Shown: one piece after another, positions 307-52,658 of the stretch
Layout of the letters: each line of letters starts with the position of its first letter
How positions within the stretch are numbered: the first letter of the stretch is position 1
Source of the DNA: a virus
Lineage: Duplodnaviria > Caudoviricetes
IMG/VR virus record: IMGVR_UViG_3300017911_001697
Span: 1-64,000 of that record
Direction: 5' to 3' (one strand)
Length of the DNA stretch: 64,000 bases
Notes under the pieces: model-generated
The model's database searches: none
Told to the model about the DNA's origin: nothing
Seen by the model: only the letters and a program-made list of their open reading frames with translations
Translations under genes and position numbers: made by a program

Positions 307-1326
307 TTAAGATTGTGCCAAATGTGTTAAGAACTGTTTGGCACAATTTTCCCAAGTCCATTTGAGACTGCCTTCGTAAACTGTCTTTCTGTCCAGAGAG
401 CATGCTTCCTTGATGGCTTGTGATAAATCATTGTGCATGATGCCTGTAACATTTGGTTCAATAACATCAAGCGGCCCAGTAACTGGGTATGCAGCAACTG
501 GTGTACCGCATGCCATACTTTCAATCATTACTACCCCAAGCGTATCTGCACGACTTGGAAACACAAAACATTGTGCTTGTCTGTAGCACTCTGCTAAATG
601 CTTACCGTGCTTAACACCTGTGAATACCACATCAGCATATTTTTCTTTAAGCTCATTTAAGTAAGGACCGTCACCTACAACAACCTTTTGGTAACCAGGT
701 GTGTCAAGCTCACAGAATTCGTTTAAGCCTTTTTCTTTGCTGATACGACTTACACATATCAATATAGGAATACCGCTTGGCTTATCGTTGTATTCAAATT
801 GTTCTCTGTCTACACCTCTGGTCCAACTGACCACATTAGTAAAACCTTGTTCTTCTAGTTCTCTTTTTGCTGTTTCTGTGGGCACCATTACTGCAGAACT
901 ATGTTTGTGTAATTTACGCATGTACCAATAAGATAAATTAATTGGCAGTTTAAACATTGCATGCAGGAACTCTGGCCACTTGGTGTGATATCCTGTGGTA
1001 AATTTAATTTTTGCTTTTAAGGACGCATTGAGATATTTTTTACCTATGCTTCCTTCTGGCGTTGCAATATGTACATGATCGAATCCAGTTATCATTTTAC
1101 GCGGAGAGTGATCCAACCAAAAGCCCATTTTTACATCTGGGTATGGTGTGGGTATTTGAAATACACAATCTTCCGGTGTGATTACTCTGACATAATGCCC
1201 TAACTTTTCTAACTGTTTTACTACATTGGTTAAAGTAGTAACTACACCATTAACTTGAGGCTTCCAAGCGTCCGTCACTATCAGTATGTTCTTCGGCCCA
1301 CTCAATGAGTTTCCATTCACCTTCAT
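307..1326 (-). CDS. agt: GT4 (GT-B) glycosyltransferase, Agt-like glucosyl/glucuronosyl-diacylglycerol synthase
   Basis: N-terminal ILIVTDAWKPQVNGVVTTL, HIATPEG, VSRISKEKG and GT4 signature FPSRADTLGVVMIESMACGTPV; directly downstream of a plcP-like gene. True start may be the TTG at 1305. Confidence 0.8.
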   Translation of the reverse strand: MKVNGNSLSGPKNILIVTDAWKPQVNGVVTTLTNVVKQLEKLGHYVRVITPEDCVFQIPTPYPDVKMGFWLDHSPRKMITGFDHVHIATPEGSIGKKYLNASLKAKIKFTTGYHTKWPEFLHAMFKLPINLSYWYMRKLHKHSSAVMVPTETAKRELEEQGFTNVVSWTRGVDREQFEYNDKPSGIPILICVSRISKEKGLNEFCELDTPGYQKVVVGDGPYLNELKEKYADVVFTGVKHGKHLAECYRQAQCFVFPSRADTLGVVMIESMACGTPVAAYPVTGPLDVIEPNVTGIMHNDLSQAIKEACSLDRKTVYEGSLKWTWENCAKQFLTHLAQS

Positions 1327-2044
1327 GTGTCTCCACTATTGCTGTACAACTTTCAACCCAGTCTCCTGTGTTGATATAGTCTATGTTGTTTATTTTTCGC
1401 ATTGCAGCATGATGTATATGACCGCAGATCACGCCATCATAGTCCTTACTGTTTGCATAGTCTGCTAGTCGTTCTTCAAAGCCTGCAATAAAATTAACTG
1501 CATTTTTTGTTCTGTCTTTTAAATATCTACTTAGGCTCCAGTATTTCATGCCTAGTTTTTTACGAATCCAATTTAGTTTGGTGTTTAACCATATGAGAAA
1601 GTTGTATGCAACATCACCAACATGCATGACCCATTTTAAATCTTTACGCATTAAGTTATCAAACATGTCCCCGTGTACAACCAGATATCGTTTGCCTTCT
1701 ACACTCACGTAATCTCGTTGATTTGTTATTCTTATACGTCCAAAACGTAAATGCCAACTAGTCCATTTTCTCAACGCTTCGTCATGGTTTCCTATAATGT
1801 ATCTTACTTTTGTGCCTTTGCTAGACTTCTTTAGTATTTCTCTAATAACGTCACTGTGTGATTGAGGCCAATATATGCCTCTGAGTAATCTCCAGCCGTC
1901 GATGATATCACCAACTAAAAATAGTTCATGTGCATCATTTTGTTTAAGAAAGTCTATGAGTAGATCGGCATTACAGCCTTTTGTGCCCAGGTGTACGTCA
2001 CTAATGAAGATGGACTTATACTGTTTTTTTGCGTTTTTTGGCAT
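1250..2044 (-). CDS. plcP: metallophosphoesterase, PlcP/LpxH2-like phospholipase C
   Basis: Motifs FISDVHLG, GDIIDGW, WPQSHSDV, GNHD, HGD, CGHIH, YINTGDWVESCTA, matching the Sinorhizobium/marine PlcP type as I recall it; overlaps the agt-like gene. Confidence 0.8.
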   Translation of the reverse strand: MPKNAKKQYKSIFISDVHLGTKGCNADLLIDFLKQNDAHELFLVGDIIDGWRLLRGIYWPQSHSDVIREILKKSSKGTKVRYIIGNHDEALRKWTSWHLRFGRIRITNQRDYVSVEGKRYLVVHGDMFDNLMRKDLKWVMHVGDVAYNFLIWLNTKLNWIRKKLGMKYWSLSRYLKDRTKNAVNFIAGFEERLADYANSKDYDGVICGHIHHAAMRKINNIDYINTGDWVESCTAIVETHEGEWKLIEWAEEHTDSDGRLEASS

Positions 2045-2837
2045 TATCTTTTACTGCTTCCTTTAAGATGTTGAGTTTACTGTTTTGTGTTTTTGCATAA
2101 TACAGTAACGCCTGTGTGTCTTTAGGGAAACAATGACCTCCAAAGCCAAAGTTGCCATCTGGGCCTGGTACTTTTAAATGACTATTGCCAATGCGAGGAT
2201 CGCATTTAAGCATGTCAGTAAATTGATCCCAGGTGCTGTGTGTTTGTGATGTTTCAAATAATTCATACATCTCATTAAAAAATGCAACCTTGGTTGCTAA
2301 GTAACTATTTATGGTATATTTTAGTAAACTAGCAGTAATGAGGTCTGTTTTAAAGGTAGGACAAATCTTTACTGAACTGTGTTTAACGTATGCTTTTTCT
2401 ACAAGTTCGCAGTCTCGCCACTTGCCTCCTAACACTTGCATGTGAGGATTGAGAAAGTCTTGGTGTGCATTTGCTTCTGTGAGAAACTCTGGATTATAAA
2501 CAAGTTTTACAGCAAAGTCTTTTTTCATTTTAGTTAAGTGCTTGGGTGTAATTGTGCTTTTGATAACCACAATGCCTTTATAGTTTTGATCATATAAATC
2601 ACTCAGCACCTGTCTAACAATACTAACGTCTACATCGCCGCTGTCGCCTACTGCTTCTGGTGTAGGCACACATATAAATGTTATTGCAGGATTGAACTCA
2701 ACAAGCTCTTGGATAGTGTTGTTATTCTTTGCAGTGTCTACTATAAACTGTTCTACGTTCTTGTCAAACCCATTAATGACACTGCCGCCAACAAAGCCGG
2801 CTCCAATTATTCCTAGTTTTAAATTACTTTGGCTCAC
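2016..2837 (-). CDS. ugd: UDP-glucose/GDP-mannose 6-dehydrogenase family (short form lacking the C-terminal UDP-binding domain)
   Basis: Rossmann GIIGAGFVG, ICVPTP, IKST, YNPEFL, catalytic GFGGHCFPKD; GTG start. Confidence 0.85.
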   Translation of the reverse strand: MSQSNLKLGIIGAGFVGGSVINGFDKNVEQFIVDTAKNNNTIQELVEFNPAITFICVPTPEAVGDSGDVDVSIVRQVLSDLYDQNYKGIVVIKSTITPKHLTKMKKDFAVKLVYNPEFLTEANAHQDFLNPHMQVLGGKWRDCELVEKAYVKHSSVKICPTFKTDLITASLLKYTINSYLATKVAFFNEMYELFETSQTHSTWDQFTDMLKCDPRIGNSHLKVPGPDGNFGFGGHCFPKDTQALLYYAKTQNSKLNILKEAVKDNAKKRKKTV

Positions 2838-3075
2838 CTTCGTACCACTCTATAACTGTGTTCACACGAAAACTTCTGTATGCATCTTTGTCCAAGCACC
2901 ACACAACTATGTTGTCGCTTTGAGGATCAAAATCTTTTACAACTACATTTTTACCTGCAACCTCTGAATTCAGAGTGCATGGCATAATTCTAATTTCTTC
3001 AGTGTTAATTTTTTTGAATACTACTGTTACAATGCCTTTTTTGGCTAAATTTATAAATTTACCTGGATTGTTCAT
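2824..3075 (-). CDS. WYL_2/DUF2693-like small SH3-fold phage protein
   Basis: VTVVFKK...RIMPCTL...VVWCLDKDAYRSFRV pattern; ATG at 3075 overlaps the upstream TGA (ATGA), so the ORF-track start at 3135 is probably too long. Confidence 0.65.
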   Translation of the reverse strand: MNNPGKFINLAKKGIVTVVFKKINTEEIRIMPCTLNSEVAGKNVVVKDFDPQSDNIVVWCLDKDAYRSFRVNTVIEWYEGEPK

Positions 3076-4076
3076 GCAATTAAACCTTTTTCTAACAAAT
3101 CTTGTATTTGCTTTTCTCTTACCATTGCACCCCATCGTCTTGGATTAACATAAGTCTTTTTAAAGAATTTGCACATTTGCGGATTAGGATCAAACAACAT
3201 CATACTATTGATGCCTTCGTTTAATTCACTGCCCAATGAACAAACTGCTTTGTGTAACATAGTGCTATCCCATTCTAACTTGGTGTAAGGACAAGTTTTA
3301 TCATTTAAACCATCAAAACGTGGAGCAACGTCAGTGTTGAAAAATTGCTTGAACCAATCGTAGTCTGATATCAAGTTTGGATCCCAATCAGTTAACACTG
3401 TCATTTGGCATCCTAGTCTTGCACCATAGATCGCCCACAAGCCGTTTTCAACATCTGAACCAATGTTGCACCATGTTTGCAGTCTATTATAATTGCCATA
3501 CCATATTTTGTCAAGAAAAAGATCTGGTTCTACACGTTCTCCTTGATCAAGGCTCATCTTAACGCCTTCTCTAAACCCTGCTCTAAATGCTTGAAATGGA
3601 GAAGCAGTCTGATGTACTTCTGAGAATGTATCGTTGAGTTGTATGTAGTTTAGTTTCCAGCAAAACTCCATACCTTCGCCGTCTGTTGCAGCTTCGTGAG
3701 TGTTGATTGTTTTGGTATATTCTGTGGGCCAACACTTTAATCCACCATTACCGTACACTAGTCCATTGAGTAAGTTTTTAGCATTCCAACTAAAAATACT
3801 TTCTGATATATTGTTGCCATCTAAATCAGTGTCAGGAACATCAAGTACTTGTTCAAAGAAGTCGTCCATCACAATGTTATCACCATCTACAGTGATAAAA
3901 CGTTCTGTTTCGGATTGATTTGCGGCTGCTTTATGTGCGGCATCAAAACCTTTAACACCGTGTACACGCTTTGCCCAAGGGACTTTGTTCAAAAGATCTG
4001 CCCAATGTTCTTCACAGTTGGGTTCGTCATATGAAATATAGAATATGTCTAACTCTGTGACATCAATTTTTGCCAT
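3072..4076 (-). CDS. GT-A-fold glycosyltransferase-like phage protein
   Basis: IFYISYDEPN, RVHGVKGFDAAHKAAA, DxD motif FITVDGDN, NGLVYGNGGLKCW. Confidence 0.6.
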   Translation of the reverse strand: MAKIDVTELDIFYISYDEPNCEEHWADLLNKVPWAKRVHGVKGFDAAHKAAANQSETERFITVDGDNIVMDDFFEQVLDVPDTDLDGNNISESIFSWNAKNLLNGLVYGNGGLKCWPTEYTKTINTHEAATDGEGMEFCWKLNYIQLNDTFSEVHQTASPFQAFRAGFREGVKMSLDQGERVEPDLFLDKIWYGNYNRLQTWCNIGSDVENGLWAIYGARLGCQMTVLTDWDPNLISDYDWFKQFFNTDVAPRFDGLNDKTCPYTKLEWDSTMLHKAVCSLGSELNEGINSMMLFDPNPQMCKFFKKTYVNPRRWGAMVREKQIQDLLEKGLIA

Positions 4077-4087
4077 GTGTGTGGTCC

Positions 4088-4112
4088 TATTTATACTCTC
4101 AAGTATTTATCG
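4088..4112 (-). promoter_or_regulatory. tandem T4-type late promoters (TATAAATA 4095-4088; CGATAAATAC 4112-4103)
   Basis: Exact T4 late consensus plus the window's recurrent GATAAATA motif just upstream of the 4076 start. Confidence 0.6.
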
Positions 4113-4744
4113 AACAGCGGAGCAGTGTGTATTTTACAATGGCGCAGATCTGCTACAACATCTTTGGTGATTATTTCTTCTGTGAGCAATTCAACCATAG
4201 AAACTGTTAATGTATCGTATATGATATTTTGATTTTCTGGATCACTTAAAAAGATTTTGAATATTCTTTTTCCTTTAACTGTTGCTTGTATTGGATAAAC
4301 ATTTTTGTATTGTTCTTTTGCTTTAGCATCAAGTTTAATTGTTGCTGTATCTTCTTTGATACTCACATACACATCGGCATCACCTTCGCCAAAATCTACT
4401 ACTGTTAAATCTTCTGCAGACATCTTAGCATACACTGTTGCTTGAGGGCGTAGTTGTATTTTGCTTTTACCTTTACTGTCTGTTACTACCCAAAATTGGT
4501 TTATGTCTTTGTCTTTTAACATAGCCAATTCATGTTGATCAAAATCAAAAGTTTTCCACAGTGGGTTAACATCTTTGGGCGGTTGCTTGCCTAGAGACAT
4601 AATATCTCCTCTTTCATCAAAGTAAAGGAACAATTCCCTGTGATCGTTTTTTTCAATCAGTTTTTCAAAGTCGCCGGCGGCGCCTTTCTCTTCTAGAAAT
4701 CTTTTTTTGCGGGCTAATGCCTCAGGACTTATCTCGTCACTCAT
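4091..4744 (-). CDS. hypothetical protein, paralog of 4741-5409
   Basis: 217 aa; shares the EAL/ALARKKRF N-terminus and the IKGKR/RKI.F....DP motif with its neighbour. Confidence 0.75.
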   Translation of the reverse strand: MSDEISPEALARKKRFLEEKGAAGDFEKLIEKNDHRELFLYFDERGDIMSLGKQPPKDVNPLWKTFDFDQHELAMLKDKDINQFWVVTDSKGKSKIQLRPQATVYAKMSAEDLTVVDFGEGDADVYVSIKEDTATIKLDAKAKEQYKNVYPIQATVKGKRIFKIFLSDPENQNIIYDTLTVSMVELLTEEIITKDVVADLRHCKIHTAPLFDKYLRV

Positions 4745-5409
4745 TTTTTCTCCTCAACAAATTTATAATTGTCGAATAATTTTAGTGTGAAAACACTACA
4801 ACCAGTGTAGTTGTCATCTAACTCTATCTTTACTTCTTTGTTTGTTAATAGTTCTTCTAATGATATATTTACATGTTTTAGCATAAAACTTGGATCATTT
4901 TTAGTTGTAATATAAAACGGAATAATTTTCCTACCTTTTATGATCGCATCACTGAGAGGTATATCAGTATACTGCTTGAGAAGGTTAGCATGAGCACTGA
5001 TTATGAGTACAGACTTTCCCATGCTAACCTTAACATCAAACACTCTTTTATTCTGATTGTCTACCTGAAATAAAAAGAAGTCCTCTGTTGATATTCTATC
5101 TACTTCGACTGGTCTAACCTGTATAAACTTTACATGCTTGTTTTTAGGATCTGTAATAATTCTATACAAGTTCCAATTTTTATCTCTGAGGATATCAACT
5201 TGTTCGTTTGTGAATATTGCTTTTTCATACTTTGAATCTAAATCATCGTTGGGCTCTTTGCTCATAGAAACTATTGTGCCATCTTCCTCGTGCCACAAGT
5301 TCCAATCAAGATTTTTGATATGCTTGATTAAGCCATCAACGTTTCCGCCATGTTCATTTTTGGCTTCCATGAAACGTTTCTTTCTTGCTAACGCTGCTTC
5401 AGATACCAC
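4741..5409 (-). CDS. hypothetical protein, paralog of 4091-4744
   Basis: 222 aa; ATGA-coupled to the downstream paralog. Confidence 0.75.
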   Translation of the reverse strand: MVSEAALARKKRFMEAKNEHGGNVDGLIKHIKNLDWNLWHEEDGTIVSMSKEPNDDLDSKYEKAIFTNEQVDILRDKNWNLYRIITDPKNKHVKFIQVRPVEVDRISTEDFFLFQVDNQNKRVFDVKVSMGKSVLIISAHANLLKQYTDIPLSDAIIKGRKIIPFYITTKNDPSFMLKHVNISLEELLTNKEVKIELDDNYTGCSVFTLKLFDNYKFVEEKK

Positions 5410-5590
5410 TATTTTTTTCCTGCTTGGCTTTATTTTTATTCACGTGATAGTTGTATGTTTCTATAGACATTTCGTGTGCACTGAGTTTCGATAGATCATA
5501 ACCTGTAAAACCATACCAATGCATTTTTTTAAGTTGTTCCATTGCTAATCTTCTTTTAAAAACTCTTTCAAAATCTTCCTCAGATTCCAT
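5399..5590 (-). CDS. small hypothetical protein
   Basis: 63 aa; fills the gap and overlaps both neighbours in the operon. Confidence 0.55.
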   Translation of the reverse strand: MESEEDFERVFKRRLAMEQLKKMHWYGFTGYDLSKLSAHEMSIETYNYHVNKNKAKQEKNSGI

Positions 5591-6443
5591 AGTCCTTCTC
5601 CATTTGTTTTATCTTAGTTTCGTCCATCCAATCTTTTTCCACGTAATGAAATGGCATCAGTTGCTGGAAGTTGCCTATTTTAAAATTTGTATAAGAGTCG
5701 TAATATGTTGGCAACGAGTCAGACCATTTATCATTAACCATTGTTTCTGGTATATCTTGTACATGACTTTTCATGTGTACAAACGTTGGAAAATTATTTG
5801 TTAACGGTTTAGTACATTCGTGCTCAATACCAAGCAACTGCATTGCTAAAGCATAAGCAACATCTCCACTTAGCCACGCAGGCTTACCGTGAGGCATGTA
5901 TTTGTAAAACATTCTTTGCCAATGCTGAAATATTATCTCAATCATAGCAAACAATTCACTTGCTAAATCACTTTTCTTAAAATAAAAGAATGCAGTGTAC
6001 ACGTTGGGTAAATCATTTTTAACAAAATATTTTCTATAGTAATCACTACTAACAATATCACCTCGATATGTTCTCACATTGGTTGTGGCCCACACATCTC
6101 TGTCTGCTAACATATCCCACCAATGACTGACATCAACTGGAAATATCATGTCTGTGTCTAGTATAACAGTTTCGTCATACGGTGTCATGTAGTAATATTT
6201 CCACTTGTTGTTTATTTTCCAACTGGTGCTTTTTGCATCATCGTTCCATGGAATATCAATGATGTGATCAAAAACTTGTTTGTGTTTCGACTGTATTAAT
6301 TGTTTTGTTTTTTCATCAACGCACACAGACAAATTACTTACTTTGCTTTGCGTAAGTTTCAAATTGAGTGCCAGAGCATAGGCCTGCTCTAAATAATCAA
6401 CAGAGCCATTGTTCTGTGCTATTACAATATAACCTTTACTCAC
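5580..6443 (-). CDS. GT-A nucleotide-diphospho-sugar transferase (GT8-like)
   Basis: GYIVIAQNN, TPYDETVILDTDM (DxD), PNVYTAFFYFKK, FVHMK, PFHY. Confidence 0.7.
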   Translation of the reverse strand: MSKGYIVIAQNNGSVDYLEQAYALALNLKLTQSKVSNLSVCVDEKTKQLIQSKHKQVFDHIIDIPWNDDAKSTSWKINNKWKYYYMTPYDETVILDTDMIFPVDVSHWWDMLADRDVWATTNVRTYRGDIVSSDYYRKYFVKNDLPNVYTAFFYFKKSDLASELFAMIEIIFQHWQRMFYKYMPHGKPAWLSGDVAYALAMQLLGIEHECTKPLTNNFPTFVHMKSHVQDIPETMVNDKWSDSLPTYYDSYTNFKIGNFQQLMPFHYVEKDWMDETKIKQMEKDYGI

Positions 6444-11988: not shown

Positions 11989-14900
11989 TTAAATGCTGTC
12001 CCACCCGATGCTATCCCATGCAACACTGTCGAAACCAATACTTGATACTAGATCGCCATGCAAGAATGCACCAATTGTGGTAACTGTGCTTCTGTTTGTT
12101 TTGTCTGTTAAACTTAATGTTGTGCCGTCTGATTTTAACCAAACTGCTGTGTCTGGATCTCTGTCTTCATATCCTGCTGACCCACCTTTGTTTTCAGGTT
12201 GATTGAATATGTCTTTGCGTCCTGCACCAACTACTGTAACACCTGTGTTGTGTCCTAAATAAGTATTACCTTGTGTTGCTACATTGCCTGTGTATTCAAA
12301 CACAGGACCATTTGGTATTGTAGTACCTCTGGTACCTCTGACTACACCTTTCAGTGTATTGCCTGAAATTCTGTTGTATTCTATTCTTTCACTGCCATCA
12401 ATCCATGCAGCTCCCGGTATGCCAGGTTGCGGAGTAGGCAATTTGCTTGCATCAACAACTTCGATTTCTGTGTCCCATGCATTTACAAAACTAGCAGTTG
12501 TAGTCGAAGTAGAACCATCTGCTAAAATTCTCAGATATTCTGTTGCACCATACAAGTCTTGATGAACTAAGTATTCTACTGCTACTGCACTGACACCACT
12601 TGTTATAGAAACTGTACCAGCATTGTTTACAACATTTGCATCGACCCCAGACAAAGGAATAGTAAATGTTGTTGCTGTAACATTTGAAATAGTGTATGAA
12701 CCTTCTATAATAGTATTACCAACATCACTTAGTGTAACTGTGTCACCATTATCTAGTAGTGGTGATGCTAACGTACTACTGATAGTCACTGTACCACTTA
12801 CACTGTTAGACACACTGTCAGCGTCATAAGGTCCAACACTAATTGAATCTACAATATTGTTGTTTGCATCAAATGCATTTGGTGATGTTTTAACACTCAT
12901 CACTAAATTTTCTAATGGGCTGAGATATACAAGTTCTTCAGGTCGTTCTTCGCCATACAATAAATGATTAAATGACCAACCGTCAAATCCATCGTATGTT
13001 ACACCTGCTTCTCTGTAAGTACTGTTGCCACTGAATATGCCTTCGAAGTTATCTACTGAAACAAAATCGTCCCACATATCACCGAAGCCTTCTGGTGCAT
13101 CAAATGGAGTAGTATCGTAGCCATATGCTGTTTGTAGTTCTAATGAATCTCTGCCTTGTACAACACGAGTGAACACATTTGCATCAAGTTCTTCACCTTG
13201 CCATGTGCCACCTACTTTCTCTTTGACTAGCAGTAGTGTACCGTTTAAAGCACCTGCAGCAACTGCTGTACGCATCTGTGTGCTGTTTTCTACTATACTG
13301 GTATTACTACTAGAGCCTTCGCCGAAGTAATCATTAATTTCTTTGTCAAACACAGTTCTAACTTGCGGATCAAACTTGAATATTCTTGCACTAGCACTGT
13401 ATGTATTTGACGCAACATTAGCAATAGTATCGTTGTTTGCAGAATTAATGTTAGCAATATTATCCGCAATACTCACAGAGTATGACGTAGACGCAGCATT
13501 AAAGTCTGATTCTAGTAGTCTCCAGTCAGTTCTGTCAAATATCAAACTAATATTACCTGTTCTCACAGGAACATTTGCAGTGTCCCACTGTGTTTGTGTT
13601 CCGCTATATCCTGAATATGCTTTAGTGTAATCAGAGTTCTTAGACATGATTTCTCTGTCTGGAGCAAAACCAAAGTCCATGGTTCTAACTTCACCTAAAC
13701 TGCTGTCTGCATAAGGTGGTAAGTCATAGTCACTGACCATTTGTTCGTTTATATATTCGATAGGTGCACGTTTACCATCTTTGTATTCTCTGATTTTTGC
13801 AGTAAAAGGCTTGACTTCGTTGAAGTATTCAACTACACTGTCAAAGTTGTCTGGCTTGTAACCCACACGTTGTACTAAGTCTTCCTCTTCTTTTTCAACA
13901 TACACATACGATGTTTTAAATGCCCAGTCAAGTTCTCTTTGTTCACCTAGTGCATAATTCATCAGTTCAAAGAATACTTTGTTGAAGTTTTCTGTGCCGA
14001 GGAATATGTTGTCTTTGAGCACATACAAAAACTCTCTGAGCTCTGACTGCATGGTGCTGTCTATGTCTTGAGTATAAATTTTATTAGACAGTTTTACAGT
14101 TTCATTTTGAATTGCAATCTGTACAAAGCCTTCTTCTCTACAACAGTATCTCCACAATTGATACCTATCACTTTGAGATGCACGAACCATAACCACTGTG
14201 CCATCTGCAACATTTGCTAAAGAATCAAGTTGTTTAACACTTGAAACAGTGAATGCAGCTTTGAAAGTTTTATCGTATCTAATTTTTTCATTGGTTACTT
14301 GATCTGTACGTTGTACTGCATACCAGTTAACAGTATCAATATATTTCATGCTAGACATACTGTTCTGCCATGTTGTATTCAGTGTGTTCAACTTCAAGTC
14401 TGCTAATAATTCGTTAACAATGTAATGCAATGCACGTCTTGCTTCTTTTGCATCTTTAAACATTGTTTGACGTGGTCTAAACTTAATACCGTAACGCTCA
14501 ACCTCACTGAGATTTGATGCTGGAACAGCATTGCCTTCTGAATCAATCTCTGTTAAACTGTCAATGAGTTTGTTTGCTAAATCTTCAGGAACATCACTGT
14601 TATTGTCTCCTTCACGCATCAACTTCCACGATGCATGCTTTAGCCCAATTGGATTTAAGTTCCTGCTAAGGTTAATTTGTATGTTTTGCTCATCTTCACG
14701 TAAAGTCTTTGTTAGATTACTCATAACAAAACTTGCAATATTTTTAGATGTTTGGGTTCCTGCACTTATAAAGCTCACAGTGTTAATACCTTGACCAATT
14801 GGGTCTGCAAGATATTTTGCTATATCAAACGTGCTGAACTTGCGACCTGCTTGTGTAGCAGCCAAAGTACTAATTTCTCGAACATTCTGTACCCAATAGT

Positions 14901-17900
14901 AATAATATGTCTCATATTGTCCTGTTGAAGGATCAATGTTTCTTTCTACTATAAACTCGCTGGCATTTTTAGGTGTACCTGTTCCTGAATATTCAAATGG
15001 TTGCTGTTTACTTTCAACCCATTCGTACACAGTAATACCACTACCCGGGAATGTACTACCCCAATTCAGCCAACGCTCTTTGTTTGTGCCCTGCTCGTAC
15101 CAGTTGTATCTAACTGTGCTGGTGTTCCACCATACTTGCCCAACTTGCTCTTTGCCAAACACAGCACGGCGTCTAGTGTACACCACTGGGTCATGTTCGC
15201 CGAAATAATCAATTTCAGCATCAACAAATGCTGGGAAAATGCCTTTGAAAGGATCCCACATGTTGTAATCAAAATCTTTTTCGCCTGTGGTACTATCGTA
15301 TAAAATAGTGTTCTTGATATACTTAGGATCGACTAAATCTATCTGTGAACGTTTTAAATTACCATTTTCATAGTACTTCCATTTGCCATCAACGTCATCA
15401 ATCCAAACTTGTTCAAATTCTTCCTTGGTTGCAGGAATGCTTGCATCTGGGAACGCTGTACTAGAAGAAGCAATATCTTCTTCTTTATGATACCGCTGAC
15501 TTTCAAGATACAATACTCTACAATCTGTTGAGCTTATGCTGGTGTTAACTGGTTCGCCATTTAGATTACGCAATTCGTATTGGAATAAGTCACCAACGTA
15601 TGTGACGTTAGCATTGCCTAAAATACTAGAGTCGTCGCTCTTAAATCCATTGTTGTCTACTCCGTACAGCACAAGAACTTCTTCAGGTAATTCGTAACCA
15701 GTCTCATCAGAACCATATTCACTGTCTTGCCCTAAAGTACCCGGTGTACCAGGGATAAACGGTGTTTCACTTCTGCCGAAATTATCGTCTGTGCCGTCAA
15801 TGAGATCTATTACACCATCAGTGTCTAAATTCTTATCGTTAGTCGGTGTGCCGTCTACAGCAGACATTGGTGTTTGATCTGGATTGTAATCTCCGGGTGG
15901 TACACCCAACTTGTCCAGGAATCCGGGCGTTAATTCATCGAATTTTACACCGTCATAGGAAGGTGCATTCAGAATTAATTCGTCCAAATCTTCGTTGATT
16001 GGCTGCACATCAAAATTAATGTCAGTTGGATCGTAGCCAGCATTTTGCAAGGCATTGTTCAAAGCATCGGCTAAATGCTGAACAGTTGGCACTTCGATAA
16101 CTTGATCTGGTATGCCTAACTTGTTTCTAACATCGCCTCTTTCAGAACAATCAGGTATTTCTCTGGCTGTTAAGAATATTCTTGCACCAAAGCCTGCACT
16201 TCCGTGTCCGCTTAGTGTTCCGTACTTGCCTACAATTGGATCCCAATTACCAGGACTACCAAGTCGTTCGTATGTGACTGGATGATATTGTCCTAATCCT
16301 GAACTAAACTTAGGTGGCATTTCGCCGGCGTGCTCATCGCCTAAGTTGATTCCATCATACTCTAGTGGTACACCTGTTGCTAAATCTGCTGGGAATTCTT
16401 TATAAATTCCTCTGTCAATGACTTTTAAACTCTGAATAGTGCCTTCCGGATCCACTGCTGTGACTACAAACTTGGCAGGTCGTTCAGGCATACCGGCAGT
16501 TTCAACCATGTTACCGCTAGGCGACATTGTTTCTGTTTTGATTATGGGTCTAACTTTACATGGTATTTTGGCATACGCAACACCAGTATCTGGATGAGTA
16601 TACCCTGGCCCGCTGTCTATAATTCGTACTTTAGGTGGCTTTGCAGGATCATAACCTCTGCCTGATCTCAATATTGGGATACTCTTGATTCGACCTAGTA
16701 TATCTATTTCGGGCTTGCCTGCTTCACATTCTGAACCTGGAGTAGTGCCGTCACCAATAAAAACATGCACATTAGCGGCATCTGAATAGTACATACCTTC
16801 AATTTCGATACACAGTTCAGTGATAGAACCAAACGGCGATGATACAGGAGTACCACCAACAACTCTCAATCTATCACCAACTCGATAACCTTTACCACCG
16901 GTGTGATTAACACTTGCTCGGATTTCCGGCACTCTGTCTTGTCCAACCATCTGTGACGCTGTTTGAGTGTTAGCAGCCGTGGTTGAATTTCCATTGGTTG
17001 TAGTAGTTGTGTTAACGCTTGCTGTGGTTAATCCTGCAACGTGAGTACCTGTTGTAGTCGAAGTTGACTGAGTAGTTACTTCGTTGGGCAACTGATTGCT
17101 CACAGTGTATGTGTTGCCGTTGATGGCATATTGGTCCTGTGTAGAATCTGTTAATGAGAAGTTTTTCACAATGTGGAAGTCTAATACTTCTTTGTATGTG
17201 CCGCCTCTACAACCATCGCGGAATGTTAAAGGAACTGATCCACATGCACTAATAGTTACAGCGTTTTGATTACCGCTGTAACTAGGTATTGCTGTATAAC
17301 CGAATCCACCTGAACATTCAAACTCTTTGAGGGTTGCTGCAGGTGTGCCTTTGATTGTGATAGTCTGTGTGTTAACAATTACTTGATCACCAGGTGTTAA
17401 GCCTATCATATCATTTTCTGTTAATGTTATACTTGGCGTAGGCCTATAGATTGGTGCTACAGCAGTTGGCCCGGCCGGTTCGTAAACGTAGCCGCCGCCT
17501 GCTGGTCTCTTTCTTGTAGGAGTCACTGTCATTAAAGGCACTTCAGTGTACTGAATGTCTGGATCTAGTGGAGCATCCTCACTCGGTATAGTCTCTGAAG
17601 GGGTTAATGTATCAGAAAACTGTGTGGTTAATCCTCTTAATGTAGTACTGTCGTATACTAATCCGCCTGGTATAATAGTAGGATCACCTGCTGGAATAGT
17701 TGTAAATGTTACCACAGAACTGTCACTGCCATCACCTGACCCATCTGTGCCAGGGATAAATGTTGAAGATCTTGTACGCAACACATTGTCTGTGCCCGTG
17801 CTTCCATCAAAACCTGGTACGCTGATAGTTTGTATATCATAATTACTGCTTGCAATCTTTAACAGTTTTTCATCTATTAAATCATTACCCCAGAAACTGG

Positions 17901-20900
17901 AATTACCAAACTTGTCAGAACCTGGATACAGTGCAATGTCAACACCTTTAATTGCTCTTCTTGCAATAGGTATTGGTGGAGCAATAGGTGCAGCCAATGG
18001 TATTACTCGGCCTCCACTTGCACGTTGTTGTGTAACATTCACATATCTGTTATCGCCTAACGGCTGAAGCCTACCAACATTTTGAGGATTAACAGTTTTG
18101 ACTGTCTTTTTAAATATGCTTGGCATGTGTGTGAAACCTGCCATTGGTGCTAAACTGAATCCGCCAAAGTTATGCGAGTAGTTTAGGCCTGCAACGTTAA
18201 AGCGGAATGAGCCACCGCCGCCTGCGTATGGACCAGTCGGCAAAATTGGACTAGCAACTTTCAACTTAGTAGTTGGAAGACCAGTTGGGTTAATAATTGG
18301 CGTTGTTGCCACGCTACTGGTATTAGGATTAGTTGTACCGTTAGAAACACCAGTGTTTAATTGTCCCGGGTTAGGGTTACTTTGTGCAGTACCTATAGCT
18401 CTGCCAGTGTCAGTCAGAGTAGGATAGCAGATCATGTATCTGTACACACTGCTTCTCTTGTCAACTTCCACAACAAGATTTCTGCCTTTGGTGTGATCAA
18501 AATTAAATTCTAATACTCCACAATACTTAATACCTCCTGGTACACCGTTATCACGTATATAATCTTTTGGAAACTGATTGGGGTTTACATTTCCAGGGAG
18601 ATTCCAGTTTATATTTGGATATATATTTGTATTTGTGGTTGTGATTGGATTCAATCCTCTGCTGTCAAATAAATCTTGCTTTTCTTGGGCTGTGGCATTC
18701 CTCAAGAGTCCGCCAGTCCATGCAACTCGTTGCTTGCCAGCAATATTAGTGCCGCTGTACTGATAAACACTCAGTGAGTCTGTTGCTGCATCCATGTCGA
18801 TGATCAATTTGATTGCGCCGTCAACTGCATCTATCTGGTAATACCATGCATCGTCAACTCCATTAGTTGTTGTGGACTGCTCCTGGTATTCGCATTTTTC
18901 ATACACTGTGACCGTTGGTGGTGGCACATAAGGTTGTTGGCCAACTTCAATAACGACTAATACGTCAGTGTCGATGTTGCCTTCGGAATCTGCTATATCG
19001 TATGTGAACGTATCGCCGCCTTCATATCCTGTTTCAGGAATGTATGTAAATGATCCGTTTGATGCTAAATTAAATGTACCAGCATGATGCTCGGGCGGTC
19101 TATTCAGTGTTACAGTTAAAGAGTCACCTTCGGGATCACTGTCGTTGTCTAACACATTGCCAGTAAACTGTGTTTCGAAAGCAGTAAAATACTGATCTAC
19201 AATGGCCTCTGGCGGTAAGTTTGGTGGAGGTGGTGGAGGTGGAATAACCAAAGTACCACAACCTTGTGTTGGCGGTGTATGTACCACATAAGGATTGACC
19301 ACCACTGCACCAGTGTTGTTAGTTGCATAGCCTGATGGTGTTGGGAATGTCAGTGTTGGTATACCACTACCACTACCGGGAACTGGTTGCTGCACAGATT
19401 TGTTGTGAGATAATAGTTCTCCAACAATGTATGTGTGTGCATCAGTGACAGTGATAACAACAATATCGCCAGCAGCTTCGTCATCTTCTATGCTGACAAC
19501 ACTGTGTCCTTGCACATCATCGCCTACTTTTAAATCTTGTACTTCTACCCAATTTTCATTTACTTTAAATTTGTGTGTTAATGAACCTATGAATTCAAAC
19601 CCATCATCAAACGTGACTTTTGTTCGTTGCTCCTGCTTGATCTCAACATACTCAACATCATACAAGCCAAACTCACCTGTGTGCTCGTGTGCAGTGAATA
19701 CTTTGTCTCCTACTTGTAAGTTGCCCGCGGGTTTTGTTTTACCGTCTTGTGATATCTTAATTGGCATCTCTGGTGCGGGACAAGATGTAGTAACAGGAGG
19801 ATTAGTTATAGTTTGAATAGTGCCCAGCAAATTTAAAAATGTCTGACTAGCACCCGACGCTGTTGGTTTAACTGTGCCACCAAATGTGCTGTTGATAAAT
19901 GTGTTATTGGTACCCAGCGATGATGCAGCAGTTTTGCCCCTGGTTCCTGGATTGGTAAAATTATTACCTGCTCCACTAGTTGCAGTGCTGTACCCGCCAA
20001 CGCTTGTGCTAGGATTAAAATAACTAGTATTTAATTTGGTACTCATTGGTGTTACACTTGCACCTGAGCTTAATGTTCCTCGTTGTGCTTTTTGACTTAT
20101 CTTTGACTGCCCAGTACTGGTTTTATTGAATCCTTTTAACTGAGAGCCAGGAGAACCCACTGGCAAATTGCCTGTCTGCACTAGGTTTGTTGTTGATATT
20201 CCAGCAAAGTTGTTTACATAAGGAGATGATCCTCTGGTTTGTCCTAACATGCCTCCAGTGGCTGAGTTATGCAGTGGATTCTTGAGCATGGGTATACCCA
20301 TTGTAAAACTACCGGGTGCTTTAATCCAACCACGTCTTAATGCAAAGCCTCTGTTCAATGCCTCGATCATACCATCTAAACTTGTAATGTTGTCTATTTT
20401 GATATTAGAATTGTTTAATGATATAACATCATGATCCAATGTATTCATCACAGTGGTGTTTGCATCCATGTTGATAGTTTGATCATTAAATGGATATGCA
20501 CCAGCAACAACAATAGTGTTTGCACTTGGAATTTTGTCTACTCTATAAACCCTGTTGTAGAATTTTTCCTTTGAATTATGAATAGCAATCTTTTTATTCT
20601 TGTAATCAATTTTGATTCCATGAGGTTCACTTGTTGTGATAGTGATATAAGGTGTTACAATATTGCCTGTTGTTGGCCCACTAGCAATATAAGGAGCCTG
20701 TATACAGAATGTGTTTGCACTTGCACTTTCTACTGGCCACTGTCCGCTATAAGGCCCTGCTACAATTTTAACTGTTTGTCCGCCGAGGAATCCGTGTCCG
20801 TCTGAGGTTATTTGTGTCCTATTAAAGAAACGCACAGTCATGTTTGCAGGCTCAACATTACCACTTAGTGTTTCATTAATGGTAAATGTGCTGTTTGCAA

Positions 20901-23900
20901 TATCAATATTAGATGCTTGATATGTATTGCCAAATAGTATTTGTTCATCAGGTGTAATGTTTGATGTTGCAAACCCTACGGTTGTGTTTACATTCACACT
21001 TAGGTTATCAACTGTGGTATAAATCTTGACTGTGTTGTTGCTGATTCTTTCTGCAAATCCACTAGCAAAACCACTAATACCAGGATTGATATCTGTAATT
21101 GCTTTGACTGTTCTAGGGCCAATTGACGAAACATACTTTTCAGTCATTGCCACAGGAGTAATATTGCTCAGCCTAACCGACTTGTTGTTTACAACTTCTT
21201 CATTTACCCAGACAACAAATTTATCACTGGTATCCACGTCTTTGATTGCAATATGGTAATCTAAGAATCTTCCTAAGTCTATGTTGCCAATCTGATTGCT
21301 GTCAGTATAATTAAACAGTGACACATTGCTATACAAGTATGCTGTTTCGTCATCTCCTTCACGCTCAACAAAACTGATGTCTGTGTTCGCTTCTTTGAAT
21401 TTATACACATTCCAATGTCTGTTTTCGCTTATTGCAACATGGACTGTGCTGTTAGCATCTGGCTGTATCAACAAACTACTATTAAATAAATCGCCAATGC
21501 TAGGCACATCAAATGCACTAAAGTCTACATTAGAACTGTTTACATAACCAGCATTAGGAATTTTTGTGAATCTGCTGTCATTTATACCTGTGTAATCAAC
21601 ATTAGCAGTGGTTGGCCACAGGTTGTTTTCCCTAACGCCAATTGGCTTTTTGAGGAATCTCTCAGTGTCGTCAATGTCTATCAGTATCACATCATCGGTT
21701 TTAACATCTGGTGTGATTTCATATATTCTTTTTGTTTTTGTGAGTATTGCAATATCATCGCTGGTGGTTGTTTTAATATTTAAACTAGCACCAGGAACAT
21801 CACCAAAGTACGCATCTTCAAAGTCAATTGTAGGTGACTCCACAAGATAAATGTTTGCACCTGCTGCTAATCTATTGCCTGGTAATGTTTCAACATTGTG
21901 AATTGTTAACTGACTTGTGGTCAATGTATACCTGATATCTCCCACAGTATTAATTAATTCAACTCCATCCACAAACACATTAGCATGAGGATATGTAATA
22001 TCGTTTTGTTTGACAATGTTGTTGGCATCCAGTGTTTGCGATAGAGGAATGTTTACATTTCCTGAATTAACAAAATCATTGTCGAAGTCTATTGCACCAC
22101 TTGTACTGATGTTAAAATCAAACTGCTGTCTGGAGCCTGCATCGTAAATCCAATTGTTGCCGTTATCAGATGACACAGTTGAACCTGCTACTGTGACAAT
22201 TATATCATCAACAGTGGTTGCTCCTGTCCCTAATGTTGGGTGATTGTCAACGGCAGAAATACTGTATCTCTGATGCGGCTGATATCTATTAGGAGTTAAG
22301 TTTAACGTTGACAGAGTTGCTCCATTTTCACTTAATGTGAAATCGTTACCTGAAATACTTAACACATGTTGCTGTATAACATTACCGCCTTCTAGCACAT
22401 TACTTGTAATGCTTGATGCAGTAATACTTGAATTGATTGTTGCATTACTGTTAATTGCTGTAACAACATTAGCCACACTGGTCACACTGCTTAAATCTAA
22501 ACTAACACTTACATTAGAACCATTCACTGTACTTGTGATGTCTAACAAACTCAATGTGCCTGTTACATCTGCATCCGTAATTGCATCTGTGCTGACCGCT
22601 ATAGGTTTATTAAATGTTGTACTAATATTTGAAATATTTAATTCTGCTGCAATAACCTGTAATCTAACTGGTTGTTTGTATCCTGAGCCTGCATTAGTTA
22701 TGCTCACTGATTTTAACACACCGTTGGCTTCTAATTGTGCAACCGCGGTTGCTTGTTCTGCAGGTGTGCCAGTAGGCGCTGCTATTTCAATACGAGGTAC
22801 TCTGTGATACTTGTGTTTGGCCTTTATAATTTTAACACGATCAAGCACACCTGTGGTATCTTCTGGGAACGCCAATGTGATCAACTGTGGATCATTTGTT
22901 ATCTCACTCTTTTGTAATTTTAACTCAATTGCTTGATCATTTTCTAAATCACCAAAGTCGCCTGCTTTAATAGCCCATTCATCGTATACAGTCATTTCGC
23001 CTTGTACAATGTTTGTGCTCTTTGCTATTCTGCTTAAACTTGCTACAGTTCCTTTATTCTGTAACATGCCTTTGTAGAATTCAAATTGATCATCATCTTC
23101 TACTTCAAGTACATTTAGATATTCTTTTTCTTGATACCCAAACAGACCCCTGGCTTGTTCGTATATTTGTTTTTCTACAGGTATAAAGCCTAGTTCGTGA
23201 TAACGCCCTAAACTCTGTGCCATATTGTCTAAGTTAGGTTTTAGTTCGTCATTCTGAATGATAAAACCTTCGGTACTGAATAATCCGCTCCAATTTGCAG
23301 TACGTTTGCCTTTAACTTTTAATCTAGGCTGTGCATGGCCGTGCACAGGATCAAATAATACGTCATTGAAGTTGGTTACGTTGTCAAACACTAACGCATG
23401 TTCAATTTCTTTAGTATACAATATTGTGCTATAAATCTGTGAACCTTCTGGAGGAACAATTTCGATTGTGTTACCTTCTCTGACTATTTCACATAACTTA
23501 GGTTCAATTGCTTTTCCGTCTTGATCAATTAATGAAAATTGATTTTTATCTGTTCTATTAATAGCAGCTATCATTCCGGTGCTGCTATTGAATACTAATC
23601 TATTTGCACAAGGACTGAGCTCTAGTGTGTTGTTATTTTCCCAGCCCCCGGATACCCAGAACAAGAATTGGCGTACAACATAATTCCAATTTCTAACATC
23701 ATTGATGCTTGAATCAAAATTACCAAAATCAAAACCAAGACTTTCTTGGTATGCTCCTAGGCCAACAATAACATCAACTACTTCCTGATAAGTTTTGTAT
23801 TCTGTTTGATAATCAATTCTGTCCACATAAGGTAAACTGTCCAAGAACAATGTTGCTTTGACACTGCCTGTTTGTGGTAAACTTGGCAGTCTATTCCATA

Positions 23901-26900
23901 AACTGGACATAAAAGTCTGACTGCTAGGCACCAACGTAGGAGCTCTGTAGTAACCGTTATTGTAACTTACAATAGTTTCTTTTGGATAACTTTTACCTGG
24001 TTCCCAAATTTGATAGTCTACAGCATTGCCGCCGACTTCAACACTGGATGTCTGGCCTTTGTAATTTCTGCGTAACACTTCAAAATAACCAAAGTTTTTA
24101 TCATATCCTTTGATTTTATAACCGTTAGCAGTTTTTTGTATGTGCATGCCAGAATACGAATTTCTATTTTTGTAAGGCGAACTGTGTACTACAACATCAA
24201 CATTTTCGTTTGGTATTACCAAACTCTGAGATGTTGTGGTAAGACTAGTTTGATCTGCCCTCACTGACAAAGTATCTTTATCAGTAAAGCCTGCTAGTCT
24301 GTGTGCTAATTTTATGTTAACTTTTCTCAGTTTTTCAGCATAGTCTGTTGTGGTATTTAAATCCTGATATGTTAACCAACTGTGAACAAACTGTGTGTAT
24401 CCTGAATTGATCACAGTGTTGCCGGTGTTGTCAACTGCACCGTGTATACAGAAATGATCTTGATCTACAAAGTCAAATGGTGTTCTGGTTGTGCTGTTAA
24501 TGATCTTTGTTTTATCTAACAACGGCGATGTGATTCTAGTAGGATCAGAAAATTGTGTAACAAACTTACCAGGACGTGATAACAGTAATGCTTCTACAAC
24601 AGCAAACGGATAAGCAACACTGTATTTCCATGCATTCTCTACAGGTGCTCCGTCCCCGAATCTCCAAACACTGTTGGCCAAGTCAGTATCATTATTTGGG
24701 GCAACTGTTAGGTTACTTGATATAGCAACTAACGATCCTTCTTCGGTAATCGAGCCTGTGTTGTTTTTGGTTGGTTCAACTGGTTCTGTCCAGTACTTTC
24801 CTTGATATGTATTATCGCTTGATCCAACTGTGCCGCCAATTGCAAACGGGAACATTGGATCTCCGTCATTGTCAATCGTAGCAACATAGAACCAAATTGG
24901 AGTTGTAGGACTGTCAGGCGTTATACCGTAACGCAAATTGTATTTGCCTAGTTCGCCTGAATTGGGTGTGCCAACTTCGCCTGCATAAGTTGAAGCATTA
25001 GCAGGATTATAAGTGTAGTCTTGAATAAATTCGCCAGTGTGATCACCGCCTGGTCCAGAAGATCTATTATTTTCTTTTAGTTTAAATCCACTCTGAATGT
25101 TTGTGATATCATTGTTTACTACTTGGCCGTTAGCAGCATATTCTGTGTAACCATAAGGCCCGTATATTGGTAGTCCATCAAAACTCCAACCTACCACAGG
25201 CGAATGATTATCAGTGTCCCATTCTGTCAAACCAGCATGCTCTGGTTCAATAAAATAAGTTCCGTTTGCTGGTGCATCGCCCCTATAGGTATTTGTGTAG
25301 TTCCAATCACCTTCGTTGTTCCATGATTCTGCACTTCCTGGATTTAAAATAGGTGTGCCTGTTACTGTTATACCTATTGCATTACTGGAAATTGCAGTTG
25401 GCGTTTGAACAATAATGTTTGCTGCCTGGGTCAAATTATCAAATGTGTAGTTATACAATTGATATTTGGTATTTTCAATTTTATCTTCCACAAAAATATA
25501 AGGCGTTTCAAAGCCGTCTAATCCTTCTGCAAATCCACTACCTTGTATGCTAGGACTAATTGTACCATCGTAATCCCAGAATGTGCCTGCTTGCGGTGCT
25601 GCATTAGCATCAAACAAAACTCTCAGTGCAGCAGAACTACCATATGTAACATTAATGCCATTTGGCAAATTGCTTTGTCCAGTGCTGTCATAAAAAGTGT
25701 CTGAGACTGTTTGATTAGCAAGACGCCTGTTATTCCATATTTCTTCTCTGGTAGTTGTACCTGTGCTAGTAATTTGACCCGGACTTAACAGTTCTGCATC
25801 TGCATTTACAGGAATAAAGTCTGAAAGTCCTACACGGCGCCAATTGTTATCATTCTTGTAAGCACCAGTAGTAAAGTTTTCTCGGGAACCTTGTCTAATA
25901 ATACCTTCCTCAAGGTCTTCCCACATGCTGAAATTTTTGCTACCGTATGAAGTGCCATACTGTGTTTCCCACCAACTTGGTTTTTCAATAAAGCCAAGCA
26001 TCTCCCACGGATGGGTATGTGGTCTAACAGTGTCGTAGTAATATTCGTACCAGCCTCTCCAGTGTCCTGGTAAATCTAATTTACCTCTGTAATTCCAAGT
26101 CCATGTATTTGTTGCATCAAAATGCTCGTTTGTTACATGATCAACTTTGTTAATTTTTGCCCAGTCATTAAAACTGTTTCTCAACAAATCAGTGTATTCA
26201 CGTGGTGCAAAATTGTTGCTTCTAAATTTACCTGCCCTAACGTCACCAACGTTTAATGCTGGTAAACTGTTTGCATCTCTGAACTTACTCAAAGAAGTAT
26301 TATATATTCTTGTTTCAAATTCTAATAGTATATCATCAACAATGGTGTTTGTTAATGTTGTCTTACTGCCGTCGTGTCCAACTAACAGTTTAATAGGTGT
26401 TTGAAAACTATTGTCCGTTTCTATACGTGGAATGTATAATGGATAAATGCCCATTGTACTTGGGGTAGGCGGACATTCGGCACTGTCTCGCTCCTCGTTA
26501 TATAACTTTGTGATAATAGAATCGCCAAGTTTTACAGTGGCTGACACATCTACTGTGATTGGGTTTGCAGATGATATTGTATAGTCTTCATCATTTGTAA
26601 GTAACTCTTGTTTTCCATTTTCAGGATCAAACTTGTAGACTAACAAACTGTTTTGCAGTGTTTCTAAATCTTCGTAGTTGCTTAGTGTATACGAAGTGTT
26701 AGATAAATCACTAACGTCAAACGTTTCTTCAATATAATTATCGCCGAATGGCAAAATAAATGTGCTACCAAAAACATTTTTACCAACACTGAAAGAGATC
26801 AAATTTCTCAGTACTTTTTCTAAAATGTATTCATTTGTTAAATTTTCTACAGGGAAAGAATTATAGTAATTTTGTATTTCCTTAACTAAACGTGATCTGT

Positions 26901-52630: not shown

Positions 52631-52658
52631 TTGACTTAAAGATAAATAGTGCTATAAT
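52631..52658 (+). promoter_or_regulatory. composite promoter TTGACT-N16-(TGc)TATAAT with embedded GATAAATA (52641-52648)
   Basis: Both motifs are directly visible upstream of the portal gene. Confidence 0.6.

Follow-up and report, generated by a model that had tools for sequence, protein, structure and literature searches.

A phage-borne plcP-agt cassette predicted to convert phospholipid to glycolipid, and its short dehydrogenase neighbour

Results

This study concerns three genes at positions 307 to 2837 of a 64,000-nucleotide stretch of viral DNA (hereafter the window), which is the first 64 kb of the 73.9-kb IMG/VR virus record IMGVR_UViG_3300017911_001697. All three lie on the (-) strand. 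The first, ugdS (2016-2837; 273 residues, GTG start), encodes a short protein resembling UDP-glucose dehydrogenase (UGDH) with the NAD-binding and central catalytic domains only; the second, plcP (1250-2044; 264 residues), encodes a calcineurin-like metallophosphoesterase assigned by sequence as a PlcP-type phospholipase C; and the third (307-1326; 339 residues) encodes a family 4 glycosyltransferase (GT4) assigned on the same grounds as an Agt-like diacylglycerol glycosyltransferase. Neighbouring genes overlap, ugdS and plcP by 29 nt and the end of plcP and the start of the GT4 gene by 77 nt. A first-pass annotation, made from the letters alone, had read them as a module that remodels phospholipid into glycolipid. 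The listing of open reading frames (ORFs) confirms that the three co-oriented genes are real and intact at these coordinates, and every motif that had been quoted from them is found: GGHCFPKD in ugdS; FISDVHLGTKGCNADLLIDFL, GDIIDGW and WPQSH in PlcP; and TDAWKPQVNGVV in the GT4.

The plcP product matches Metallophos (PF00149) in Pfam, and its homologues are named LpxH in their source annotations. Yet against the LpxH equivalog models it reaches only 42.6 bits where the cut-off is 190.35 (TIGR01854) and 49.8 bits where it is 134, and a PDB search gives an E-value of only 1.3e-4 against the solved LpxH of Haemophilus influenzae. Each of five Burkholderiales genomes encodes a true LpxH (229-243 bits with the LpxH model) besides a paralogue that scores 30-36 bits and is the plcP product adjoining agt. 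In trees of 61 and 76 PlcP rows, with LpxH of Escherichia coli and Burkholderiales as outgroup, all PlcP-like proteins, that of the window included, are set apart from LpxH by a very long branch with support of 100. In alignment, the window protein shares with its Burkholderia PlcP orthologues several states that are absent from LpxH (GNHDE, where LpxH has GNRDF; GDIIDGW; YWSLSxYLK; NxGDWVES) and, likewise, a 12-residue insert after HGD. The metal-binding motifs of the calcineurin-like core (DxH, GD, GNHD, HGD and GHxH) are intact in the window protein, and the metal-binding residues D16, H18, D46, N86, H87, H124, H209 and H211 are invariant in 19 of 19 family members. Burkholderia latens and B. 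dolosa each hold a single match to it, at 50% identity and about 282 bits, adjoining agt. PlcPs within the B. cepacia complex are reported to share over 84% identity with the PlcP characterised from K56-2 (PMC13691135), while characterised PlcPs are mutually only 46-47% identical and characterised Agts 35-41% (PMC8528852). Because the LpxH models fail, the separating branch is long and the PlcP-specific features are present, the 264-residue protein is, by these sequence criteria, a PlcP-type phospholipase C and not LpxH, as the first-pass annotation had supposed.

The glycosyltransferase has the Pfam domains Glyco_transf_4 (PF13439) and Glycos_transf_1 (PF00534), and its best NCBIfam matches are glycolipid synthases, none of them reaching the cut-off. 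Its best match in both B. latens and B. dolosa is the gene beside plcP (44-45% identity, about 277 bits), and across three Burkholderiaceae genomes the plcP-linked agt reaches 276-283 bits, with the runner-up GT4 at about 40 bits. In the SAR11 protein GTcp the Agt-clade motifs have been described as a His within YHT, a TR pair within WTRGVD, the donor motif R..EK, FPSxxDTxG (in which Asp replaces Glu), a Glu eight residues on, and a C-terminal Trp (10.1101/2021.03.25.437072). The window GT4 carries all of these signatures, that is, the His/Asp dyad, both UDP-sugar motifs, the Thr-Arg pair and the C-terminal Trp, and residues H114, R170, R194, E198, K199, D261, T262, G264, E269 and W325 are invariant in an alignment of window, viral, Burkholderia, Rhizobiaceae and Sphingomonas proteins. 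Both the overlap with plcP and the N-terminal extension of the GT4 are kept in viral relatives. The plcP-agt-dagK operon of B. cenocepacia K56-2 has been characterised and is conserved across the complex, and in E. coli its Agt yields both glucosyl- and glucuronosyl-diacylglycerol (PMC13691135). By unique best match and by clade motifs the window protein behaves as an Agt orthologue and is predicted to be an Agt-type diacylglycerol glycosyltransferase; the family assignment of the plcP-agt pair on these grounds is strong.

The pairing of the two genes is conserved. Among 80 bacterial genomes recovered by a search with a related GT4, plcP stands directly upstream of the GT4 gene on the same strand in 47; a species-genome search with a marine GT4 from a virus-like contig (P0135) returned only relatives of 37-44% identity, none of them from SAR11. 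In viruses, relatives of PlcP occur in at least 525 IMG/VR contigs. We compared 96 viral plcP loci, half of which (48) have an Agt-like GT4 gene and a third (32) a GT2/GT21 gene, with plcP alone in the remaining 16, some of them cut by contig ends. Cassettes of plcP and a glycosyltransferase gene are thus widespread in viral contigs, and this synteny, together with the orthology of the GT4 and the separation from LpxH, bears out the view of plcP and agt as a phage-borne cassette for turning phospholipid into glycolipid. GT2/GT21 genes are of the kind that includes processive diacylglycerol glycosyltransferases, and plcP with a GT2/GT21 gene of 235-256 codons forms a second viral cassette (loci L007, L011, L012, L014, L184, L191 and many of L203-L257).

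All 51 viral PlcPs in the tree group with nine marine bacterial ones in a clade (support 100) apart from other bacterial PlcPs; the marine bacterial members are from Hellea, Hirschia, Robiginitomaculum and a metagenome-assembled genome of Acidimicrobiales. Among cultured phages, plcP is present in Pelagibacter phage Mosig and cyanophage S-SRM01, and the cultured-phage collection held no Agt-like GT4 above 31% identity. The plcP of Mosig is annotated as an LpxH-type hydrolase and is divergent from pstS; pstS lies beside plcP in this phage and in loci L007 and L189. In close viral relatives the cassette has other lipid or redox genes as neighbours: L004 (3529-5948) encodes a ketoacyl synthase of FabF type and a protein resembling NifU, and L016 (3481-8949) a ferredoxin, a class-3 lipase and a plastocyanin-like protein. 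In open-access papers and preprints we found no published description of a virus-encoded PlcP or PlcP-Agt pair.

The short dehydrogenase

The ugdS product matches PF03721 and PF00984 in Pfam and covers positions 78-300 of a 413-position nucleotide-sugar dehydrogenase model. A separately encoded C-terminal Ugd domain was considered and rejected for the 73.9-kb contig, on which no PF03720 (the UDP-binding domain) was found, and a truncation artefact was rejected since the family is conserved at this short length. An exhaustive search gave 514 clusters at E <=1e-30, of which the best 150 are nearly all 250-300 residues long and aligned end to end, and the open frames are of 242-296 codons in 68 of 69 viral ugdS loci, the 69th (L180) being a partial match. 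The equivalents of the UGDH catalytic residues (T95, E117, K173, N177, C236 and D240) and the GxGxxG motif are invariant in the family. An AlphaFold2 model of ugdS (mean predicted local distance difference test, pLDDT, 96.4) finds UGDHs only as structural matches, over their first two domains, with template-modelling scores of 0.75-0.83 by query and about 0.5 by target, about half of the target being covered. Among cultured phages, the Campylobacter CP220 group has the same short form. The usual neighbours of ugdS are genes for DNA polymerase B (directly followed by ugdS in 30 loci), clamp loader, phosphoribosyl pyrophosphate (PRPP) synthetase and radical SAM proteins. At locus L112, ugdS sits beside genes for a T4-type DNA alpha-glucosyltransferase, an epimerase, a dCMP deaminase and a ThyA-like protein, a neighbourhood that hints at a part in DNA sugar modification in some phages. 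The ugdS product is a member of a large, conserved, mostly phage-borne family of about 270 residues, which retains the catalytic residues without the UDP-binding domain, and is not a canonical Ugd.

Expression signals

Two promoter-like ATAAATA motifs on the (-) strand, at 4088-4095 (TATAAATA) and 4104-4110 (ATAAATA), stand 11 and 27 nt before the ATG (4076) of the upstream gene orf334. The form TATAAATA as such is not enriched in the window (2 sites against 3.9 expected), and the informative promoter test is the positional one, made on ATAAATA only: of the 15 sites in the window, 8 fall between genes and no more than 150 nt before a gene on the same strand, where the null is 1.1% (P ~1e-12), and among them are sites that precede structural genes, the portal gene included. 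Because ATAAATA is so strongly enriched just upstream of genes, the two motifs at 4088-4110 look like real phage promoters. Many ATAAATA sites (33495, 40150, 47726, 48890 and others) read gcgATAAATAc with TTAAAAC...TTTATGA some 10-25 nt upstream, a longer pattern that suggests a two-part phage-specific promoter.

The block also contains sites of the sigma-70 type. A perfect consensus (TTGACA-17-TATAAT) lies on the (-) strand at 3486-3514, inside orf334 and upstream of WYL_2-ugdS-plcP-agt, and a site matching at 11 of 12 positions (TTGACA-16-TATAGT) at 2740-2767 (-), inside the 5' end of ugdS and upstream of plcP-agt. The window holds four perfect promoters of the form TTGACA-N16/17-TATAAT (33542(+), 40258(+), 44363(+) and 3514(-)), where shuffles predict 0.09. 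Sites that match at 11 or more of the 12 positions number 12, against an expectation of 2.8, and an ATAAATA motif falls within the spacer of the sigma-70-like sites at 52631 and 58546. The first-pass annotation had the operon read from late promoters at the two upstream motifs. The enrichment of ATAAATA just before genes makes this plausible, but the motifs head the conserved core gene orf334, and strong sigma-70-type promoters inside the block would also permit early expression.

Phage identity and genomic context

The window encodes a T4-type portal, a major head protein, a baseplate wedge and an SbcCD-like nuclease; the structural genes and the IMG/VR virus record itself confirm its phage origin. 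CheckV estimates the record as 20% complete. The portal shares 55% identity with its counterparts in PA5oct-like Pseudomonas jumbo phages and 49% with those in Atu_ph07 and Phosso, and megablast of the first 6.5 kb of the window against cultured phages gave no near-identical phage. Several of the viral plcP loci belong to jumbo-phage contigs with portals 51-53% identical to that of the window, among them a complete phage genome of 359.6 kb (portal 51% identical). The source is probably a jumbo T4-like marine phage with a genome of about 350-370 kb. No tRNA gene was found in the window.

A long (-) block extends from the baseplate and giant-protein genes to position 307, and its five last genes are orf334, WYL_2, ugdS, plcP and the GT4 gene; the contig ends 306 nt beyond the GT4 gene, and a short convergent ORF occupies the gap. 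At the head of these five, orf334 (3072-4076, (-) strand) has an N-terminal fold like that of GT-A glycosyltransferases with an invariant D-G-D, and no Pfam domain. Its AlphaFold2 model (pLDDT 83.5) gives VIA-align Z-scores of 9-10 against GT-A glycosyltransferases over residues 3-160, and a Foldseek search alone gave weak matches. More than 7,900 homologues were scored, the best 120 of which are 73-90% identical, and the only match in a cultured phage is in Ralstonia phage RsoM2USA (51%). In sister phages orf334 is the end of the conserved structural block and a variable island comes next, and it is in this variable island, behind the tail and baseplate block, that the plcP-agt cassette is located. 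Between orf334 and ugdS, WYL_2 (2824-3075, (-) strand) encodes a small Sm-like SH3-barrel protein (PF10902, 1.1e-06; phrog_1086); its start codon (ATG, 3075) shares the sequence ATGA with the stop codon of the gene before it, and the longest ORF extends to 3135. It is also present in the variable island of one sister phage.

Further upstream on the same strand, 4091-4744 and 4741-5409 are adjacent paralogues of 28% identity that both begin ...ALARKKRF... and have no family match, and 5580-6443 encodes a 287-residue protein with a DTD motif and the look of a GT8-type glycosyltransferase, matching only phrog_1903 (function unknown). A single ORF of 5,660 codons occupies 11989-28971 (-); its counterpart in sister phages encodes 4,110 residues with Peptidase_S8, cadherin-like, Big_9 and FG-GAP domains.

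Discussion

In many lakes and across much of the surface ocean, bacteria and their viruses are limited by phosphorus, and the viral responses to this that are known concern phosphate uptake (pstS and phoA). From the plcP-agt pair we infer activities, an expression during infection and a benefit of a different kind. The overlapping genes would form a translationally coupled cassette, in which PlcP would remove the phospho-head group from host glycerophospholipids during infection to leave diacylglycerol, and the Agt-type GT4 would glycosylate this to monoglucosyl-, possibly glucuronosyl-diacylglycerol, so that the membrane remains a bilayer. Phosphatases of the host would then liberate phosphate from the detached head groups for the synthesis of a very large phage genome. 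Scavenging of phosphorus, with maintenance of the membrane, is the most likely role; the inference is reasonable, backed as it is by the linkage of pstS in other phages, and we give this explanation as a whole a probability of roughly 65%.

Several observations weigh against it. The product of PlcP is phospho-head groups and not phosphate, and the first-pass claim that the phage carries the whole route was for this reason overstated: both lipid genes are present, but the route also requires a phosphatase. Neither pstS nor any other phosphorus gene occurs on the 74-kb contig, which is about 20% of the genome, and no Pho box (a paired CTGTCAT-type repeat) was found near the operon, the best matches (11/14) lying inside genes with none positioned as a promoter, so that nothing ties expression of the cassette to phosphate status here. 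The slot after orf334 holds unrelated genes in sister phages, and some of the IMG/VR contigs may not be viral. In the comparisons of proteins, orthologues from the B. cepacia complex stood in for SMc00171, PB7211_983/960, PA3219/3218 and BCAL2364/5. Donor use differs within the Agt clade, Agt1 of Pseudomonas aeruginosa taking UDP-glucose only (PMC8528852). The remaining two points concern ugdS, which lacks the UDP-binding domain PF03720 and has plcP nearby in only 1 of the 69 loci fetched with the window protein.

The Ugd step is therefore the weak link of the interpretation, and it is also its most interesting part. It is possible, if on balance unlikely, that plcP-agt is a real lipid cassette and ugdS stands outside it, as a general gene of phage sugar or nucleotide metabolism that shares the variable island; it might, for example, feed the GT-A-like orf334 product or another glycosylation, while Agt uses UDP-sugars of the host. 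The scarcity of plcP at ugdS loci favours such an arrangement, as do the usual neighbourhood of ugdS by replication and nucleotide genes, the copy at L112 beside a DNA alpha-glucosyltransferase and epimerase, the presence of an orf334-like gene near ugdS in L178, and the sister phages, in which another dehydrogenase-like gene, or none, follows orf334. A search centred on plcP gives a different picture, since ugdS directly abuts plcP-glycosyltransferase cassettes in eight other loci. The window has the order ugdS-plcP-GT4; these loci add four others, some with a GT4 and some with a GT2/GT21 partner: plcP-GT4-ugdS (L209), plcP-x-GT4-ugdS (L228, L235), plcP-GT2-ugdS (L191, L193 and, behind pstS as pstS-plcP-GT2-ugdS, L007) and ugdS-GT2-plcP (L012). 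By a rough estimate, which is not a formal test and assumes that a gene present once may lie anywhere in a genome of some 200 kb, about 0.2 chance adjacencies would be expected in 96 loci. No orf334-like gene occurs in these other loci, and the only match among the 96 plcP loci is a weak one in L256, which has no ugdS; in the window, moreover, ugdS overlaps plcP by 29 nt. Because ugdS abuts cassettes in several gene orders, we consider a functional link to them somewhat likelier than an accident of position, and ugdS then probably supplies or creates a glucuronic-acid head group.

The first-pass annotation made ugdS the source of the UDP-glucuronate donor, which is only partly borne out: the repeated adjacency to cassettes, in several gene orders, speaks for a link, but the missing UDP-binding domain, the replication and nucleotide-metabolism neighbourhoods of most of the family and the other genes in the same slot of sister phages do not. 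One doubtful but specific proposal is that ugdS works in the lipid module without a UDP handle, either by oxidising the glucose of membrane glucosyl-diacylglycerol to glucuronic acid or as a minimal UDP-glucose dehydrogenase. If it does, the phage could turn phospholipid into an anionic lipid free of phosphorus autonomously, with genes of its own, and the truncated dehydrogenases, a large orphan family, would have a function for the first time.

The purpose of the cassette may also be other than phosphorus. Remodelling could serve to block superinfection through changed charge or receptors, to resist antimicrobial peptides or grazers, or to condition the membrane late in infection; as the explanation of the cassette we regard this as rather improbable. 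It would accord with the phage-type ATAAATA motifs that head the block and with the Pho box not found, and the literature offers parallels in work on aminolipids and phage attachment (PMC9938194) and on lipid remodelling and predation (PMC9457565), in the protection against polymyxin B by P. aeruginosa glycolipids (PMC8528852) and in a discussion concerning P. aeruginosa phages (PMC9804370). The island also lies behind the block of tail-fibre and baseplate genes, a position in which pelagimyophages carry glycosyltransferases that modify the surface (PMC7029224). Against this, pstS is linked to plcP in several phages, and the pathway is a phosphate-starvation response in every bacterium in which it has been characterised; the two purposes are in any case compatible and not exclusive.

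That a late-expressed PlcP aids lysis by flooding the membrane with diacylglycerol is highly improbable: the ATAAATA motifs at the head of the block would suit it, but the diacylglycerol would be consumed by the product of the overlapping agt, a glycosyltransferase gene is paired with plcP in 80 of 96 viral loci, and the sigma-70-type sites inside the block permit early expression. Least credible is the reading implied by current annotation pipelines, of an LpxH-like diphosphatase, a core or O-antigen GT4 and a Ugd for lipopolysaccharide, which has in its favour the LpxH names of homologues in source records, the listing of lpxH among viral lipopolysaccharide auxiliary metabolic genes of the surface ocean (PMC10653327) and a similar interpretation of pelagimyophage glycosyltransferases and Ugd (PMC7029224), but which founders on the wide failure of the LpxH models, on the phylogeny and diagnostic columns that give PlcP, and on a GT4 that is the unique match of plcP-linked agt.

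A virus-encoded PlcP-Agt pair would tap the membrane, which is a large internal store of phosphorus, while sugar lipids keep the cell intact. The genes occur in hundreds of viral contigs and at present pass for the lipopolysaccharide gene lpxH, so that surveys of viral genes misplace them. The recurrent Ugd relative without its third domain offers a handle on an uncharacterised enzyme family.

Comparison with known systems

LpxH (E. coli b0524; PDB 5k8k) belongs to the same metallophosphoesterase superfamily as the window PlcP and is of similar length, but it forms a separate clade, has GNRDF, and is without the 12-residue insert, YWSLS..LK and the GDWVES tail. With canonical Ugd (Ugd/HasB/BceC; PDB 1dli, 3gg2, 2y0c and 3phl) the ugdS product shares the NAD-binding and central domains and the full catalytic set, whereas the whole C-terminal UDP-binding domain is absent from the ugdS family; none of the solved structures is a natural two-domain form of Ugd.

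The closest analogue of the cassette is the bacterial PlcP-Agt operon, which has the same two families, in the same order and orientation and with the same signature residues. PlcP and Agt (GTcp) of SAR11 HTCC7211 are among its characterised members. The others are BCAL2364-BCAL2365-dagK of B. cenocepacia (PMC13691135) and PA3219-PA3218 with PA0842 of P. aeruginosa (PMC8528852), and the layout of plcP followed by agt is the 'type 2' lipid-renovation layout of Sebastian et al. 2016 (PMC4796936). Relative to the Burkholderia operon, the window proteins are about 50% (PlcP) and 44-46% (GT4) identical, which is within the range among characterised members. Unlike the bacterial operon, the window cassette is borne by a jumbo phage, has a 77-nt overlap, shows no Pho box or dagK, and is preceded by phage-type promoter motifs and, directly upstream, by a domain-truncated dehydrogenase gene.

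Among phage genes, the nearest comparison is with the phosphate-stress genes pstS and phoA of cyanomyoviruses and pelagimyophages, which are likewise host-derived and part of the plastic portion of T4-like genomes, and which, like the window cassette, are expected to ease phosphorus limitation of phage replication. The difference lies in the source that is drawn upon: pstS and phoA serve phosphate import, while the cassette, annotated so far as lpxH, would mobilise the internal phosphorus of membrane lipids.

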